The notes under the pieces: model-generated
The model's input: only the letters and a program-made list of their open reading frames with translations
Database searches by the model: none
What the model was told of the DNA's origin: nothing
NCBI GenBank assembly: GCA_045643965.1
Contig: JAZRGB010000065.1
Location: 1 to 51,305, forward strand
From: Candidatus Enterousia sp.
GTDB taxonomy: Bacteria; Pseudomonadota; Alphaproteobacteria; Rs-D84
Reading direction: 5' to 3'
Length of the DNA: 51,305 nucleotides
Made by a program: the position numbers and the translations under genes
Shown here: positions 5,661 through 25,273 of the stretch, one piece after another
How positions within the stretch are numbered: position 1 is the stretch's first letter
Layout: each line of letters opens with the position of its first letter

Positions 5661-5737
5661 GTGCCCATAGCAGAACTGGATAATGCGTCACCCTCCGAAG
5701 GTGAAGATTGTGGGTTCGAATCCCGCTGGGCACGCCA
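5661..5737 (+). tRNA. tRNA-Arg(CCG)
   Basis: Acceptor GTGCCCA/TGGGCAC, anticodon arm TCACC-CTCCGAA-GGTGA, GGTTCGAATCC T-arm, encoded CCA. Confidence 0.95.
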
Positions 5738-6604: not shown

Positions 6605-7777
6605 TCAAATCTCCTGTAATACATCTTTGACAGTTTGTAACTCTTTATACCCATATCTAGTTGTAGGCTCTAAAATTGCACCTTCCCCCCACTCATTCCA
6701 AGCATTAATGTACACATATCTTTTTTTTGCATTATGTTTCTTTATAGTCCAATTTACAATCCCAGATAACCATTGTTTAAAATCACCATCTTTCAAACAA
6801 TACATTTCAGCTTCACTGTACAGTTTTCTGGCCGAATTATCCCATCCAGGACATGCACATTTATATAAATCATAATCTACATCAAACAGATACAATTGAC
6901 GTTTTATAAACTTATGCAAATCATATAACGTCAACTTCATTTTTTTTGACAATGTTCTTGCTGATTTTTTTTTCAGTTTTTTTTGCAAATTAGCCGGGAA
7001 AAATTCTGTCAATCCATTTAATTTATATTGTTGCAAAAAGTTGTTGTCTTTAACAAAATCAAACACCGTCGTTAAATACATTCCGTCAAAACCATTTTCT
7101 TGTGCTAATCTATTTAACGTATCGACAAACTGAACAAACAAATCTTGCCCCATATCTTCTGGATGATAAATCATCAACATTGGTTTATTGTCTATTTTCT
7201 CATACCTTTCATCTTTTAAATAAGGCAGCATGTCATAGAAGAATTGCTCAAACTTTTCCGGGCTATATTTTTGTTCTAATATTATTTCTTTATTTCCGCC
7301 ATGCCATCTACGTGACCATGTTTCATTAGCCCAAAAGAAATGAAAATGAAACTCTATATCAGACTTTAAAAAATACTCCAATGGTTTTTCTAAAATTCTC
7401 TTACCATCAAACCAATAATAATAAAAACAGAAACCATACACTCCATACTTTTTTGCAATTTCTACTTGCCTTTCAATAACCCCAGGCATAAGCAAATTAT
7501 AGAACCCCATATCGTATGGTAACTTTGGCTGATAATGTCCTGCAAATGCCGGGACACAGGAAGCCACATTATCCCACTCAGTAAATCCTTTGCCATGATT
7601 TTTGTCATTTTCTGGCACAGCATGAAACTGAGACAAATAATAAGCAAACACTTTTATATTTTTTGCAACACTTTGGCACTTTTCATCCGTAATTGCTACA
7701 AAATGACTTTTGTCGTTTTTTAAATCATCACGCCACCTTATGTATCGTGATAATGAAATATTTTTGATTACACACAT
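6605..7777 (-). CDS. WbsX-like glycosyltransferase / GH99-like domain protein
   Basis: YYLSQFHAVPEND..GKGFTEW, FCFYYYWF, WANETW, PGWDN and INAWNEWGEG motifs; SD AAGGAG before ATG 7777. Confidence 0.88.
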   Translation of the reverse strand: MCVIKNISLSRYIRWRDDLKNDKSHFVAITDEKCQSVAKNIKVFAYYLSQFHAVPENDKNHGKGFTEWDNVASCVPAFAGHYQPKLPYDMGFYNLLMPGVIERQVEIAKKYGVYGFCFYYYWFDGKRILEKPLEYFLKSDIEFHFHFFWANETWSRRWHGGNKEIILEQKYSPEKFEQFFYDMLPYLKDERYEKIDNKPMLMIYHPEDMGQDLFVQFVDTLNRLAQENGFDGMYLTTVFDFVKDNNFLQQYKLNGLTEFFPANLQKKLKKKSARTLSKKMKLTLYDLHKFIKRQLYLFDVDYDLYKCACPGWDNSARKLYSEAEMYCLKDGDFKQWLSGIVNWTIKKHNAKKRYVYINAWNEWGEGAILEPTTRYGYKELQTVKDVLQEI

Positions 7778-7792
7778 ACTTTTCTCCTTAAG

Positions 7793-7817
7793 AAAAAACC
7801 ACCAAATCCTTGGTGGT
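7793..7817 (-). terminator. Leader terminator immediately before the WbsX SD
   Basis: Minus strand ACCACCAA-GGAT-TTGGTGGT followed by a U-tract. Confidence 0.7.
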
Positions 7818-7900
7818 CGGGAAGTTAAGACAATCATATACGCAAAATGATCCCACTGGCTTTCGGTTTATGCCTGTTGTATGACCAGCGGCTTCCCGAC
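7816..7900 (-). ncRNA. Putative C4/CI-like antisense RNA (multi-stem)
   Basis: Closing stem GTCGGGAAG/CTTCCCGAC, inner stems CCGCTGG/CCAGTGG and ATCAT/ATGAT; exposed UGCGUA and UGUCUUA are complementary to upstream TACGCA and TAAGACA in the same leader. Confidence 0.55.
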
Positions 7901-7912
7901 ATATTTATCGAG

Positions 7913-7968
7913 AAACAAAAAGGCGCAATCGCGCCGCACTATATTTGCGGATTACGACGCATTGCGCC
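7913..7968 (-). terminator. First leader terminator / attenuator hairpin
   Basis: GGCGCAAT...ATTGCGCC stem with inner CCGCA/TGCGG stem, followed by TTTTTGTTT on the minus strand. Confidence 0.6.
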
Positions 7969-8028
7969 GTGCGTACAAAGGATGTCTTACGTCCCCGAAC
8001 TCTATCCCTAGGGTTCTAATAAAAACAT

Positions 8029-8057
8029 ATCGTATATTACCGTATTTTTCAAGGCAA
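8029..8057 (-). promoter_or_regulatory. sigma70 promoter of the structured leader / WbsX-GT2 operon
   Basis: TTGCCT-17-TACGAT. Confidence 0.6.
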
Positions 8058-8122
8058 TTTTTGTTACCCATCAATAAAAACACCTAAAATATAAACGAAT
8101 TTGTTTATAATGCAACTATACA

Positions 8123-8950
8123 TCAGTACTTATAAGGAAAAACTCGTATAAGTTCTTTGCAAATCTCTTGTACTTTATTTTGTGACACCTTGTAATTATC
8201 ACTAATAAATTTCGTATCTGTGATTTTTGTATCTTGCGTCATAAGTATCTTATCTGGCAAGTCCATATCTAAGGCAGAATAATAATCACGAAATTTGTAA
8301 TCCCCACCCGTAATTTTATCCGACAAAACCATTCTCACATTTGGAATACCAAAAGAATCTGCCACTATCAACCCATGCATCGCACTAGATATTACATGCT
8401 TACATTGTGCTATTTGCAACAACGTCTGTTCTACAGGAGCAGTAACATCAATAACAATTGAATTTGCAACTTGTATATTTTTTAACAATGGATTATTTGC
8501 ATCAACATAATGTGGAATTATTCCTAATTCGTATTTCTTTTCTATTTTTGACACATCTAACAGTTTGGAAGCCAGCAATCCAGGATCTCCTAATACAACA
8601 TTCGATAAATTATTTCCTGTATATTTTTGTAATCTGTTCAAACTAAGCTTTCCACGAACTGCACATACGTCCAATCTTCGTATCATAAAACCATCATCTG
8701 CTAAATTATCGTCAATAAAACCACTGCCCCATACCTTTACTGGCCTCTTAAATATTTTTAAAATCCATCTTCCTAATGACAACTTGTTTTTTTGCAAACT
8801 ACCAAGAACACTGCCCACCGCCATACAATCTGCTTTTGAAGCTTTACTTCGCTTAACAGGCACACCAAAAAATTCATTGAACAACAAAGGATTTAAAACA
8901 TCGCCTAAATTATATATCGCTCTGTACCAGTAAAGCCTTATTCTTCTCAT
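8123..8950 (-). CDS. Polysaccharide pyruvyl transferase family protein
   Basis: NLGD, VWGSG, AVRG, GDPGLL, IIPHYVD and SSAMHGLIVADSFGIP motifs. Confidence 0.88.
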   Translation of the reverse strand: MRRIRLYWYRAIYNLGDVLNPLLFNEFFGVPVKRSKASKADCMAVGSVLGSLQKNKLSLGRWILKIFKRPVKVWGSGFIDDNLADDGFMIRRLDVCAVRGKLSLNRLQKYTGNNLSNVVLGDPGLLASKLLDVSKIEKKYELGIIPHYVDANNPLLKNIQVANSIVIDVTAPVEQTLLQIAQCKHVISSAMHGLIVADSFGIPNVRMVLSDKITGGDYKFRDYYSALDMDLPDKILMTQDTKITDTKFISDNYKVSQNKVQEICKELIRVFPYKY

Positions 8951-9111
8951 ATCTTAACTCTTTGTTATATATTCAATAAATATGTGTTATATTATGTTAT
9001 AACACAAAATACCAGCACATAAAACAAAAAACTTACACGCCCCTATTATGGATAATAATTCTTGAAAAGAATAAACCAATTAAATACACTAACTGTTAAA
9101 AGAGCATATTC

Positions 9112-9585
9112 ATGGACAGGTTTAAACTATTTTTTATTACAATCATAATATTGACTGGTTGCAACAGTGTTTATATGAAACCAAATACACTGGACGCATC
9201 ACAGGTGTTTTATGTCGATTCTGGTGGTCACTTGATGCAACTTGGCACAAAAGAACACATGGAAGAACGCGGGTATAAACTAACTGTTGGTCACAAGCGT
9301 GCAAGCCTAAAAACAACATATATTACATCAGAAAGTGTTGATTCTATTATATCTAATGCAGATATTGGCAAGGCACGTTATATCATTAATATTTCAGAAA
9401 CAACAAATAAATTTAGACCTTTTTGGTGTTCATTAAACGGATTCTGGTGGACGCGTTTTAATATGTCTATTGCAGATAATGTTACCGGCCAAGAGTTATT
9501 ACATTGGACGGGACGCGGTTGTGTAAACAGTTCTGTCAGAAAATTAGATAAAATTCTTGATAAATTAGAAATATCTGAAAATTAA
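9112..9585 (+). CDS. Hypothetical lipoprotein (157 aa)
   Basis: Lipobox ILTGC after a hydrophobic stretch; upstream TTGAAA-17-TACACT. Confidence 0.75.
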   Translation: MDRFKLFFITIIILTGCNSVYMKPNTLDASQVFYVDSGGHLMQLGTKEHMEERGYKLTVGHKRASLKTTYITSESVDSIISNADIGKARYIINISETTNKFRPFWCSLNGFWWTRFNMSIADNVTGQELLHWTGRGCVNSSVRKLDKILDKLEISEN

Positions 9586-9611
9586 AAATCCCCCAAACGG
9601 GGGATTTTTTT
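9584..9611. terminator. Bidirectional terminator (ATCCCCC family)
   Basis: AAAAATCCCCC-AAAC-GGGGGATTTTT between convergent genes. Confidence 0.85.
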
Positions 9612-10230
9612 AGTCGATAATTGTATATTCACAAAAACCTTCGTTCGTGTCACAACGTGATGTTGTACCTTCGCTGATAAAGTAGCCTTGTTCATGCAAG
9701 CATGCTGGGCATACTGTTGGTGCTTCGGTTCCGATGTGCCACATACCACAGTTTGTGCAACGCCACATAACAATTTTATCTTGTTTGAACAATGTGCCGT
9801 CTTCGATTGCTTCGGCCAAGGCACGGAAACGTGATTCATGATAACGTTCTGCCAAACCGATATTTTTCAAAATTTCTGCAATTGCTGGAAAACCTTCTTG
9901 GGCAGCAATCTGTGCAAACTTTGGATACATTTCTGTATTTTCTTCGTGTTCACCGTATGCAGCAGCCTGCAAGTTTTCCAAAGTTGTGCCGATTTTACCC
10001 GCTGGGAAAGATGCTGTGATTTCAATATCACCGCCTTCTAAGAATTTAAACAAGCGAGAAGCATGTTCTTTTTCTTGATCTGCTGTTTCCAGGAAAATTT
10101 TTGAAATTGCTTGGAAGCCTTCTTTCTTTGCGGCAGAAGCATACATTGTATAACGATTACGTGCCTGAGATTCACCAGCAAACGCAATCAACAGATTTTT
10201 TTCTGTCTGTGTACCTTTTAATGATACCAT
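9610..10230 (-). CDS. rbr: Rubrerythrin
   Basis: AFAGESQARNRY, EKEHA and ERYHE diiron motifs; C-terminal CxxC...CPxC rubredoxin-like domain. Confidence 0.93.
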   Translation of the reverse strand: MVSLKGTQTEKNLLIAFAGESQARNRYTMYASAAKKEGFQAISKIFLETADQEKEHASRLFKFLEGGDIEITASFPAGKIGTTLENLQAAAYGEHEENTEMYPKFAQIAAQEGFPAIAEILKNIGLAERYHESRFRALAEAIEDGTLFKQDKIVMWRCTNCGMWHIGTEAPTVCPACLHEQGYFISEGTTSRCDTNEGFCEYTIID

Positions 10231-10300
10231 GGCTTGTTTTCTCCTTTATGTTTTTTTGTTTATGACGAAATTCTACCAGAGAAAACTATAAAAATCAAAA

Positions 10301-11323
<1,023 letters not shown>

Positions 11324-11341
11324 CTATTATAACTTAAAAAC

Positions 11342-11370
11342 TTGCAATTTCCAGTCCAAAAGACTATAAT
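11342..11370 (+). promoter_or_regulatory. sigma70 promoter of ssrA
   Basis: TTGCAA-17-TATAAT. Confidence 0.75.
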
Positions 11371-11376
11371 TAGTGG

Positions 11377-11720
11377 GTCACACAAGTGATGATGATTCTG
11401 AAGCCGTTGTGCAATAGTCATTTTGGACTGGGGGGCGGTACCCCACAGCTCCACCATTACTTGATATGATTTTTGGGTCATATTTGGTTATGGGGCTGAC
11501 ATAGTTTCGACAGATGATGAAAGACAAATTGGTTGAATCCGACATGGCGTCGTTAAAAGCCGACTAAAAACTGAATGGCGATAGAATCGCTGCTAACGAT
11601 AACGTTAGCCTTGCAATGGCTGCCTAAGATGGCGTTTGAACATGGTTGGCGATTGTTGACCACGTTCGTTTAAGTTATTGCGGGGTCGGTCGGGTACCTG
11701 GCACCAGAAACCCGATACAC
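11377..11720 (+). ncRNA. ssrA: Circularly permuted two-piece tmRNA (alphaproteobacterial type); outer ends approximate
   Basis: Acceptor piece ends CAGCTCC-A-CCA (11456) with T-arm TGGGG-GGCGGTA-CCCCA; intervening hairpin 11457-11491; coding piece starts GGGGCTG (11492) giving a G3.U70 pair; tag frame ANDNVSLAMAA* at 11592-11627. Confidence 0.93.
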
Positions 11721-11760
11721 AATTTAAATAATGTTATATAAACCGTAGGGGAAGAATAAA

Positions 11761-11985
11761 ATGTTTGGAAAAATTAAAAAAGTATTCTTTACAGGCGTAT
11801 TTGGCATCTTGTATGTTTCATTTGTCGCACAATTGGTATATGTATTGGGTTGGGTTTCCGGCACAGAAAATAAACTGGTTGCATTGGCCGTATTATCATT
11901 GGAATGGTTGGTGTTGATTGCAGCACGTTATTTATCAAAACGTTCCAGCAACAGTGCACAACACAACGGTTTCCGTCGTCGTTAA
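11761..11985 (+). CDS. Small membrane protein (74 aa, 2 predicted TM)
   Basis: SD AGGGGA, two hydrophobic helices, followed by a terminator. Confidence 0.7.
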   Translation: MFGKIKKVFFTGVFGILYVSFVAQLVYVLGWVSGTENKLVALAVLSLEWLVLIAARYLSKRSSNSAQHNGFRRR

Positions 11986-12010
11986 TTTTTAATTTTGAAA
12001 ATTCATTATT

Positions 12011-25196: not shown

Positions 25197-25273
25197 TGGT
25201 GCGAGCAAAGGGGCTCGAACCCTCGACCTCAACCTTGGCAAGGTTGCGCTCTAGCCAACTGAGCTACGCTCGC
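25197..25273 (-). tRNA. tRNA-Gly(GCC)
   Basis: GCGAGCG acceptor, anticodon arm CAACC-TTGCCAA-GGTTG, T-loop TTCGAGC, encoded CCA. Confidence 0.95.

Follow-up and report, generated by a model that had tools for sequence, protein, structure and literature searches.

Introduction

The question raised by the locus described here is why an RNA leader with the layout of a phage immunity device should stand directly in front of a glycosyltransferase gene in an alphaproteobacterial chromosome. The leader lies on the minus strand, at positions 7793-8057 of a contig of Candidatus Enterousia sp. (order Rs-D84; assembly GCA_045643965.1, contig JAZRGB010000065.1); the whole 51,305-nt stretch that was analysed is referred to as the window. 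The genome, G000, comprises 1.10 Mb in 66 contigs, has 38% G+C and is 94.5% complete. The C4, CI and IsrK RNAs are textbook immunity devices of phages, satellites and prophages, in which they gate antirepressor or lytic genes. A first-pass annotation, made from the letters of the window alone, had described a promoter, two short target sites, two terminators and an RNA of about 85 nt whose loop and bulge are complementary to the targets, and a check of the sequence recovered all of these features on the minus strand, base for base and without any shift in position.

With moderate confidence we interpret the element as a leader switch of the C4/CI/IsrK type, related to the sRNA-Xcc1 family, which lies outside a phage context and has been amplified in front of surface genes, and in which each copy would be controlled in trans by RNA bearing its own pairing code. 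What is new is the link to phage immunity architecture and the covariation of both of the folds that the leader can adopt. The setting is also new: there is no phage-type cargo, the paralogous family is large and resides in genomes of about 1 Mb, the pairing codes are private to each copy, and cell-surface genes follow downstream.

Copy-specific pairing between the two halves of the leader

The leader module measures roughly 225 nt. A DNA search of the own genome gave two paralogues, and a profile of these three copies gave ten full-length copies, the window copy included. Towards the 5' end lie two target sites, a and b, the first of them in the loop of a hairpin termed Pa, and towards the 3' end lies a domain of three stems (P1, P2' and P3) that carries the complements b' and a' (Table 1). 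The a/b and b'/a' sequences differ in each copy and yet remain complementary. Among the ten paralogues the duplex between cognate 5' and 3' parts averages -16.0 kcal/mol, compared with -7.6 kcal/mol for the 90 non-cognate combinations, and the cognate partner is the best one in its row in all ten cases and in its column in nine. An enlarged set of 38 full-length copies, of which 31 were usable (10 from the own genome and 21 from relatives; the other seven were dropped when the motif anchors failed), gave means of -17.3 and -7.9 kcal/mol for cognate and non-cognate duplexes, with the cognate partner best in its row in 28 of 31.

Covariation was assessed in a structure-blind MAFFT alignment of 29 copies, with 500 shuffles as control. 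Both sides have changed in four of the six pairs of the a.a' helix and in nine of the eleven pairs of the b.b' helix, several of these columns show up to four Watson-Crick pair types, and none of the 500 shuffles reaches the observed scores. Of the cells, 87% are paired; shifting the partner by 1-3 columns lowers this to 37-54%. The paired logic of targets and loops proposed in the first-pass annotation thus exists, and it is both conserved and covarying. In the six closest paralogue pairs the address positions differ two to three times as often as the remainder of the element (0.25-0.39 versus 0.10-0.13), and this faster change, together with the address differences between near-identical paralogues, favours an intermolecular step over a purely structural helix. 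Divergence of the addresses would be expected if cross-talk between copies matters.

Two pairs of paralogues in the genome have near-identical flanks, namely C40:348-640 with C11:17125-17430 and C33:22794-23060 with C31:19117-19380. In both pairs about 75 nt downstream are identical by eye, but the a/b and b'/a' codes differ in a compensated manner, as if a recent duplication or gene conversion had taken place and the codes had then been rewritten.

Two mutually exclusive folds

In the closed fold of the leader, GGGG together with a and b pairs with b', a' and CCCC, a hairpin termed Pz holds the 5' strand of stem P1, and the terminator-like hairpin T2 at the 3' end is formed at full length. 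In the open fold, a is displayed in the Pa loop, the 3' half folds into P1, P2' and P3 with b' and a' exposed, and P1 takes two to three bases of T2. Pz, which excludes P1, belongs to the lowest-energy fold. In 10 of 10 copies that fold is the closed one, and forcing P1 to form costs 7-19 kcal/mol; in the window copy the lowest-energy structure has the targets base-paired in cis to the loop and bulge. A 281-nt stretch folds with -96.3 kcal/mol, compared with -70.8 ± 4.7 kcal/mol in 200 shuffles (z -5.4; 0 of 200 as good).

The helices of the open fold are maintained as well. In the 29-copy alignment stem P1 is 99.6% paired with three compensated pairs, for instance in columns with GC24/AU3/CG1/GU1 and GU15/AU7/UA5/GC2. 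Pa with a in its loop was found in all 31 usable copies, the loop-closing pair being CG in 14, UA in 6, UG in 6, AU in 4 and GU in 1, and Pa is 90.4% paired in the structure-blind alignment. For the 3' domain as a whole, an alignment of 42 copies fitted to the model has 95.9% of cells paired versus 87.5% in shuffles, and in this same fitted alignment 18 of 24 pairs have changed on both sides, a count as high as in none of 500 shuffles. Pairing of Pz is possible in 34 of 34 copies, with a mean of -13.0 kcal/mol, and Pz is 93.4% paired in the 29-copy alignment.

The two folds meet at T2, which draws on the ACC within GACC, the last bases of P1, an overlap of 2-3 bases. Over 32 copies T2 averages -10.3 kcal/mol (7.2 bp), compared with -4.0 kcal/mol (4.2 bp) when GACC is left out, and 30 of the 32 use those bases. 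Since the GACC bases are shared, P1 and full-length T2 compete for 2-3 bases. Covariation of both the self-paired and the C4-like fold indicates a two-state RNA switch: there are two exclusive folds, and both are evolutionarily maintained.

The remaining hairpins are conserved in the same alignment. The promoter-proximal hairpin P0 has 97.5% of its cells paired, with both sides changed in 3 of 7 pairs, and the terminator-like hairpins T1 and T2 are 87.7% and 96.9% paired. In most paralogues the hairpin P2 has the GNRA-looped form CGGUGC-GAAA-GCAUCG. The single GC-rich terminator that the earlier annotation had placed at 7968-7913 does consist of GC-rich hairpins followed by a U run; it is made up of two hairpins, P2 at 7969-7955 and T1 at 7939-7922.

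T1 is absent from copy C58 of the same genome and from the copy at L027:692-791 in relative G006. The latter is a minimal copy that lacks P0, P2 and T1 and has Pa (with a), b, Pz and the 3' domain in this order; the middle hairpins are hence dispensable for the pairing scheme.

Relationship to phage modules

The record of phage P1 annotates, in its leader, promoter P1c4, a1, b1, the 77-nt c4 RNA, a2, b2 and icd, and the Rfam models c4-a1b1 (RF03163), isrK (RF01394) and C4 (RF01695; clan CL00128) fall on it in that order. The c4-a1b1 motif of phage P1 is a 7-bp hairpin followed by a 4-bp hairpin with a1 in its 8-nt loop, isrK is the same with an intrinsic terminator added, and C4 has a closing stem and two hairpins, the second of which carries b' in its loop, with a' occupying the junction. 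The P4 leader is matched by isrK (60.8 bits), c4-a1b1 (44.1 bits) and C4 (74.9 bits), in the same order as phage P1.

Our element shares with P1/P7, P4 and Gifsy-1 the order promoter, hairpin, a-loop hairpin, b, terminator-like hairpin and three-stem RNA, and here as in the C4/CI-type modules the three-stem RNA (about 77-90 nt in the latter) carries b' in the loop of a hairpin and a' in its 3' junction. The dimensions are also close: where a1 of P1 and P4 sits in a 4-bp hairpin with an 8-nt loop, the element has a 4-5-bp hairpin with an 8-9-nt loop, and the distance from b to the closing stem is about 69 nt, compared with 66 nt in phage P1. As in phage P1, R-Y-C follows the closing stem and the addresses are the variable part. 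The likeness to P1 and P4 noticed earlier is therefore a feature-by-feature match, which includes a hairpin not listed before with a in its loop, the promoter-proximal hairpin and an IsrK-like terminator after b.

The element differs from the P1/P7 modules in several respects. The covariance models match in neither direction, and the closing stem has 9 bp instead of 17. In the lowest-energy fold of phage P1 the 17-bp C4 stem stays closed and a1/b1 are free, whereas the 9-bp stem of the element loses to cis pairing plus Pz, an added anti-P1 hairpin that makes the self-paired fold the ground state. In addition, the element has its own terminator T2 overlapping stem P1, its cargo is of the surface or glycan kind and not icd/ant, and it occurs in 10-49 chromosomal copies. 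The a2/b2 sites of phage P1, which lie at the ribosome-binding site, and seqC of P4 are without equivalent in the element.

The arrangement in P4 (SeqA and CI) is similar in that the regulator RNA lies inside the leader of the operon controlled and the complementary site lies upstream in the same transcript. P4 CI causes premature termination through pairing with seqA and seqC, according to the accessible part of PMC4825925. The Rfam models that match P4 (isrK, c4-a1b1 and C4) do not match the element.

IsrK/STnc1160 of Gifsy-1 in Salmonella is the best worked model for a closed and open leader of such a layout. As described in PMC4825925, two RNAs arise from the isrK promoter: a short one that stops at an intrinsic terminator, and a read-through transcript held in a stable inactive fold, which the short RNA opens in trans. 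An RNA of about 80 nt complementary to IsrK, likened there to P4 CI, is processed from the read-through transcript downstream. IsrK acts on the translation of orf45-anrP and is among the RNAs listed as Hfq-binding, whereas no Hfq was found in the genome studied here and the output of our element is probably termination at T2.

A chromosomal precedent is provided by Acinetobacter baumannii, for which the available portion of PMC5320573 reports a many-copy family of Group 1 C4-like RNAs with variation concentrated in a', apparently processed from longer transcripts. That family matches the Rfam C4 motif, unlike the element, and the same portion describes neither upstream cognate a/b sites nor a position as leaders of surface-protein operons.

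Relationship to sRNA-Xcc1

The nearest curated family is sRNA-Xcc1 (RF02221), of which the 3' domain is, by sequence and model comparison, a sub-threshold, reciprocal and distant relative. The sRNA-Xcc1 model matches the 3' domain over its full length (1-87 of 87) in three of the ten paralogues, with scores of 43.8, 39.4 and 32.3 bits (E 9e-6 to 5e-3). For the reciprocal comparison, bona fide sRNA-Xcc1 was found above the cut-off in 24 of 151 sampled Pseudomonadota genomes and 12 loci were taken; R1, a covariance model that we built from the 3' domain, finds 10 of the 12 at the annotated site at E ≤ 0.42, and 7 of the 12 at E < 0.05. An exact 6-mer of a together with an exact 6-mer of b occurs upstream of sRNA-Xcc1 in 9 of 12 cognate combinations and in 3 of 132 non-cognate ones. 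The element and sRNA-Xcc1 also have in common the motifs AUACAA, a GNRA-capped inner hairpin and GAAA, the upstream a/b sites with a terminator (in 9 of 12 bona fide loci) and a position before genes. In contrast, sRNA-Xcc1 is G+C-rich and occurs on integrons, islands and phages in 1-7 copies, while the element is A+T-rich and chromosomal, possesses P0, P2 and Pz as extra hairpins, and belongs to a large family. These comparisons suggest that sRNA-Xcc1 may belong with the C4, c4-a1b1 and isrK modules, though Rfam lists no clan for it.

At the sRNA-Xcc1 loci L056-L079, a GGGG-loop-CCCC hairpin with a in its loop lies 72-128 nt upstream, followed by b and then by an intrinsic terminator. In such literature as was accessible no mention of upstream a/b sites at these loci was found, and an earlier description is possible; the accessible literature mentioning Enterousia likewise contains no RNA element. 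The available part of bioRxiv 10.1101/2025.06.18.660453 places sRNA-Xcc1 before symE in Xanthomonas integrons. It also lies before a gene for an ORF6N protein in APSE phages.

A large family in front of surface genes

With a threshold of E ≤ 0.001, R1 matches in 53 of 61 genomes of the order Rs-D84, with 1-49 matches per genome and about 490 in total. By group, matches were obtained in 35 of 36 genomes of the same genus and in 3 of 4, 12 of 14, 2 of 3, 0 of 1 and 0 of 2 genomes of the other families.

In the ten copies of the own genome a promoter-like pair lies 10-20 nt 5' of P0 in every case, mostly 3' of the terminator of the preceding gene (by eye), each copy closes with a terminator-like hairpin, and the downstream gene starts 16-105 nt past T2. 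Six of the ten downstream genes begin with a signal peptide or lipobox (by eye). The gene after the window copy encodes a 390-aa WbsX glycosyltransferase (Pfam PF14307, E 5.8e-103), with a polysaccharide pyruvyl transferase gene upstream of the leader and a family-2 glycosyltransferase gene downstream; the proteins downstream of the nine other copies gave no Pfam hit above the cut-off. Gating of a polysaccharide operon, as first proposed, therefore fits the window copy and not the other copies, most of which precede genes for secreted proteins or lipoproteins. The view that the setting is not of phage type agrees with the downstream proteins, among which no antirepressor- or phage-type cargo follows the window copy or any of the other nine; this statement covers the downstream proteins, the remainder of the window not having been screened for phage genes. 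Each leader probably turns its gene set on or off.

An orphan 3' domain was noticed in relative G022 (L051:1515-1609, minus strand), directly 3' of the end of an open reading frame. No a/b sites were found upstream of it or elsewhere in its genome, where the pattern search matched only its own antisense strand.

Observations that weigh against the interpretation

A number of results count against a copy-specific switch of the C4/CI/IsrK type. The Rfam models C4, c4-2, c4-a1b1 and isrK are unmatched at E ≤ 10 in window 7650-8200 and in the ten copies, and C4 has no match in the whole genome, so that the check with the C4, c4-2 and c4-a1b1 models suggested in the first-pass annotation came out negative; as positive controls, the C4 and c4-a1b1 models gave 68.8 and 51 bits with P1 and 74.9 and 44.1 bits with P4. 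In the opposite direction, R1 scores the c4 RNA of phage P1 at just 7.6 bits (E 0.44), which is not significant. The window copy has no sRNA-Xcc1 hit, and the best paralogue stays under the 53-bit cut-off of that family. At the 12 sRNA-Xcc1 loci themselves, isrK and c4-a1b1 (and C4) miss the upstream parts, at E ≤ 0.01 in 34 kb and at E ≤ 5 in 3.9 kb. Common descent with the C4 modules would consequently rest on architecture, together with the sub-threshold link to sRNA-Xcc1.

There is also no sign of a downstream target of the kind that phage P1 has. Over the 200 nt past T2 the cognate pairing averages -9.9 kcal/mol versus -10.9 kcal/mol for non-cognate pairing, the cognate sequence is never the best in its row among the ten copies, and no bipartite site with at most one substitution per half was found downstream of any of them (a permissive bipartite search gave many chance hits elsewhere in the genome, and only the downstream absence was used). 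The same test, which is crude, showed no enrichment at sRNA-Xcc1 loci either. Of the idea of a domesticated phage-immunity RNA switch, the logic and the layout are upheld by covariation and architecture, whereas membership of Rfam C4 and a target at the gene are not.

Other points concern the parts of the leader on which a switch would depend. The U run of T1 is weak in about half of the copies, with at least five U in 5 of 10 paralogues (by eye). Covariation in Pz is near zero, because its partner strand in P1 is nearly invariant: non-cognate and cognate Pz pairings average -12.7 and -13.0 kcal/mol, and one pair has changed on both sides. The overlap between P1 and T2 is merely 2-3 nt, and some T2 hairpin persists in both folds. 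As the closed fold is the more stable one by 7-19 kcal/mol in the energy model, the 3' RNA may never build up as a free, trans-acting molecule.

Eight metatranscriptome runs have words in common with window 7500-11800, and contigs of four of them (X1, X2, X3 and X5) could be placed on 7000-12000. These cover rubrerythrin, obg, the region of the transfer-messenger RNA (tmRNA) and one piece at 7467-7707; they do not span 7793-8057 and are uninformative on expression, ends and processing. Finally, Hfq was not found in this 94.5% complete genome; antisense control, if there is any, would have to do without it. On the supporting side, the genome encodes Rho, RNase E/G and a type-A RNase P RNA (171.7 bits).

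Alternative explanations

The alternative that survives best is a purely cis-acting leader, riboswitch-like or protein-binding, in which a.a' and b.b' would be long-range helices and a ligand or protein would set termination at T2. It agrees well with the closed fold being of lowest energy in all ten copies and appearing in the consensus fold, with b'/a' finding a complement only within the same leader, and with conserved unpaired motifs and GNRA loops in P2' that could form a binding pocket. A structural helix, however, gives no reason for a sequence specific to each paralogue or for its two- to threefold faster change, and it does not account for P1 and Pa, two helices that cannot coexist with the closed fold and are kept by compensatory changes. 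The homologous sRNA-Xcc1, moreover, exists as a discrete 88-nt RNA in the available part of PMC2996969, and the same layout acts by RNA-RNA pairing in P1, P4 and IsrK. As regards a riboswitch in particular, exclusive folds and the P1/T2 overlap are present; at the gathering scores Rfam has no match in the element region, to a riboswitch or any other family, and a ligand pocket does not predict variable helices. We regard a leader acting in cis alone as rather unlikely, though it deserves serious consideration.

An independent trans-acting small RNA (sRNA) gene of the sRNA-Xcc1 type is a weaker candidate, to which we give little credence. Such an RNA would serve unlinked mRNAs, its adjacency to the WbsX gene would be incidental, and a/b would aid folding or maturation. 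The element does have its own promoter and terminator, sRNA-Xcc1 is called trans-acting in the title of Chen et al. 2011, and a relative carries a single orphan 3' domain that lacks a/b. Against this, in the ten copies a gene begins 16-105 nt after T2, and in the window copy a further promoter would not fit into this gap; 28 of the 31 copies tested retain the a/b site; and in the genome with the orphan copy no a/b site lies anywhere else. Nor did a genome-wide seed search for targets of b'/a' bring up an outstanding second target, a search that was not discriminating, with many hits near -20 kcal/mol and only the own antisense strand standing out.

A processive antitermination RNA like put or EAR, which would let RNA polymerase read through terminators in long surface or glycan operons, is very improbable: the window copy does lie inside a glycan cluster, between pyruvyl transferase and glycosyltransferase genes and with terminator-like sites directly downstream, and EAR lies in eps operons, but there is no Rfam match to EAR/epsC or another family at E ≤ 10, hypervariable paired addresses would have no role there, and the layout fits antisense modules instead.

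Proposed mechanism and significance

For the leader switch that we favour, the following scheme may be proposed. The nascent leader would zip up from b.b' through a.a' to GGGG.CCCC and end at full T2, so that the default state would be off. Transcripts stopping at T1 would give a short a/b RNA, the analogue of IsrK and SeqA, and a freed or processed 3' domain would be the analogue of C4 and CI. The short a/b RNA and the 3' RNA could then titrate each other, as well as the nascent leader in trans, within their own address only. Such pairing in trans would shift the balance to the P1-closed fold with its weakened T2, or to termination at T1, and would alter read-through at T1 and T2, the outcome being copy-specific feedback or ON/OFF control of each operon. 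In all ten copies the targets are paired with the loops in cis when the leader is at its lowest energy, and action in trans and processing of the 3' RNA are therefore steps that we infer. The net loop may be negative, as in P4, or positive and bistable; the sequence is compatible with either.

If this mechanism is true, a gut symbiont with a reduced genome and few protein regulators would control or vary its surface by RNA alone, the copies would make up a natural set of orthogonal RNA switches, and the widespread and poorly understood sRNA-Xcc1 family would be tied to the C4/IsrK mechanism through its upstream target sites. A more far-reaching possibility, which we consider doubtful, is that the order Rs-D84 converted an immunity RNA of phages into a bistable switch that is address-coded and made of RNA alone, with 10-49 leaders per genome that each bear a private a/b code and with operons that flip independently and heritably and without change in the DNA. 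That would amount to phase variation of the surface repertoire run wholly by self-recognising small RNAs, and sRNA-Xcc1, C4/CI and IsrK would then form one widespread superfamily of self-targeting leader switches.

Anatomy of the window copy and neighbouring features

The features of the window copy are listed in Table 1 in 5' to 3' order.

Table 1. Features of the leader in the window, with positions as in the window
Feature	Position	Strand	Sequence	Remarks
Sigma-70-like promoter	8024-8057	minus	TTGCCT (8057-8052)-17-TACGAT (8034-8029)	from the sequence
Alternative promoter		minus	TTGAAA (8052-8047)-17-TATGTT (8029-8024)	overlaps the former; scanner lists the TTGAAA/TATGTT variant
P0 hairpin	7997-8016	minus	GAAC..CUAGGGAUAG..GUUC	nearest the promoter; corresponds to hairpin 1 of the c4-a1b1 motif
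Pa hairpin	7978-7996	minus	GGGGA / UCCUU	9-nt loop displays target a
Target a	7990-7983	minus	GTAAGACA	in Pa loop; contains TAAGACA (7989-7983)
Target b	7970-7977	minus	TGTACGCA	single-stranded in open fold; contains TACGCA (7975-7970); pairs with 7844-7837
P2 hairpin	7955-7969	minus	CGGCGC-AAU-GCGUCG	95.8% paired in structure-blind alignment
T1 terminator-like hairpin	7912-7939	minus	GGCGC-GAUU-GCGCC + UUUUUGUUUC	counterpart of IsrK/SeqA terminator (P1, P4); terminator scanner lists stem 7935-7922 plus TTTTTGTTTC
Pz hairpin	7892-7916	minus	UUUCUCGA (7915-7908) with UCGGGAAG (7899-7892)	pairs with the 5' strand of P1
Three-stem domain	7816-7900	minus		C4-like / sRNA-Xcc1-like; stems P1, P2', P3
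P1 closing stem	7900-7892 with 7824-7816	minus	GUCGGGAAG (also GTCGGGAAG) with CUUCCCGAC (also CTTCCCGAC)	
P2'	7891-7853	minus		consensus fold of 10 copies
P3	7852-7832	minus		consensus fold of 10 copies
b'	7844-7837	minus	TGCGTATA	mostly in P3 loop; contains TGCGTA (7844-7839)
a'	7832-7825	minus	TGTCTTAA	junction before the 3' strand of P1; contains TGTCTTA (7832-7826)
T2 intrinsic-terminator-like hairpin	7787-7818	minus	GACCACCAA-GGAU-UUGGUGGUU + U run	scanner hit, listed at 7818-7797 plus TTTTCTTAAG; first 2-3 bases (GAC) common to the 3' strand of P1
Shine-Dalgarno sequence	7789-7784	minus	AAGGAG	
Start codon	7777-7775	minus	ATG	start of WbsX-family glycosyltransferase gene (7777-6605)

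An internal promoter composed of the 3' half of T1 and the Pz loop (TTGCRC ... WTTAT) was considered and rejected, since its -35 is poor, its spacing varies and the scanner does not list it. Between the upstream stop (8123) and the leader promoter, in window 8058-8122 on the minus strand, there is no terminator-like hairpin, unlike in most paralogues, and transcripts of the pyruvyl transferase gene may therefore also enter the leader.

Maturation of P4 CI involves RNase P and PNPase. In the element, the bases that follow the closing stem (window 7816-7811) read C-R-Y-C-A in 25 of 34 copies (CGTCA in 10, CGCCA in 8 and CACCA in 7). This tail is suggestive in that it recalls the RCCA end recognised by RNase P; the same bases form the 5' strand of T2.

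Elsewhere in the window, a two-piece (permuted) alpha-type tmRNA is encoded at 11338-11719 on the plus strand (155 bits), and two tRNA genes lie at 5661-5734 (plus) and 25200-25273 (minus).

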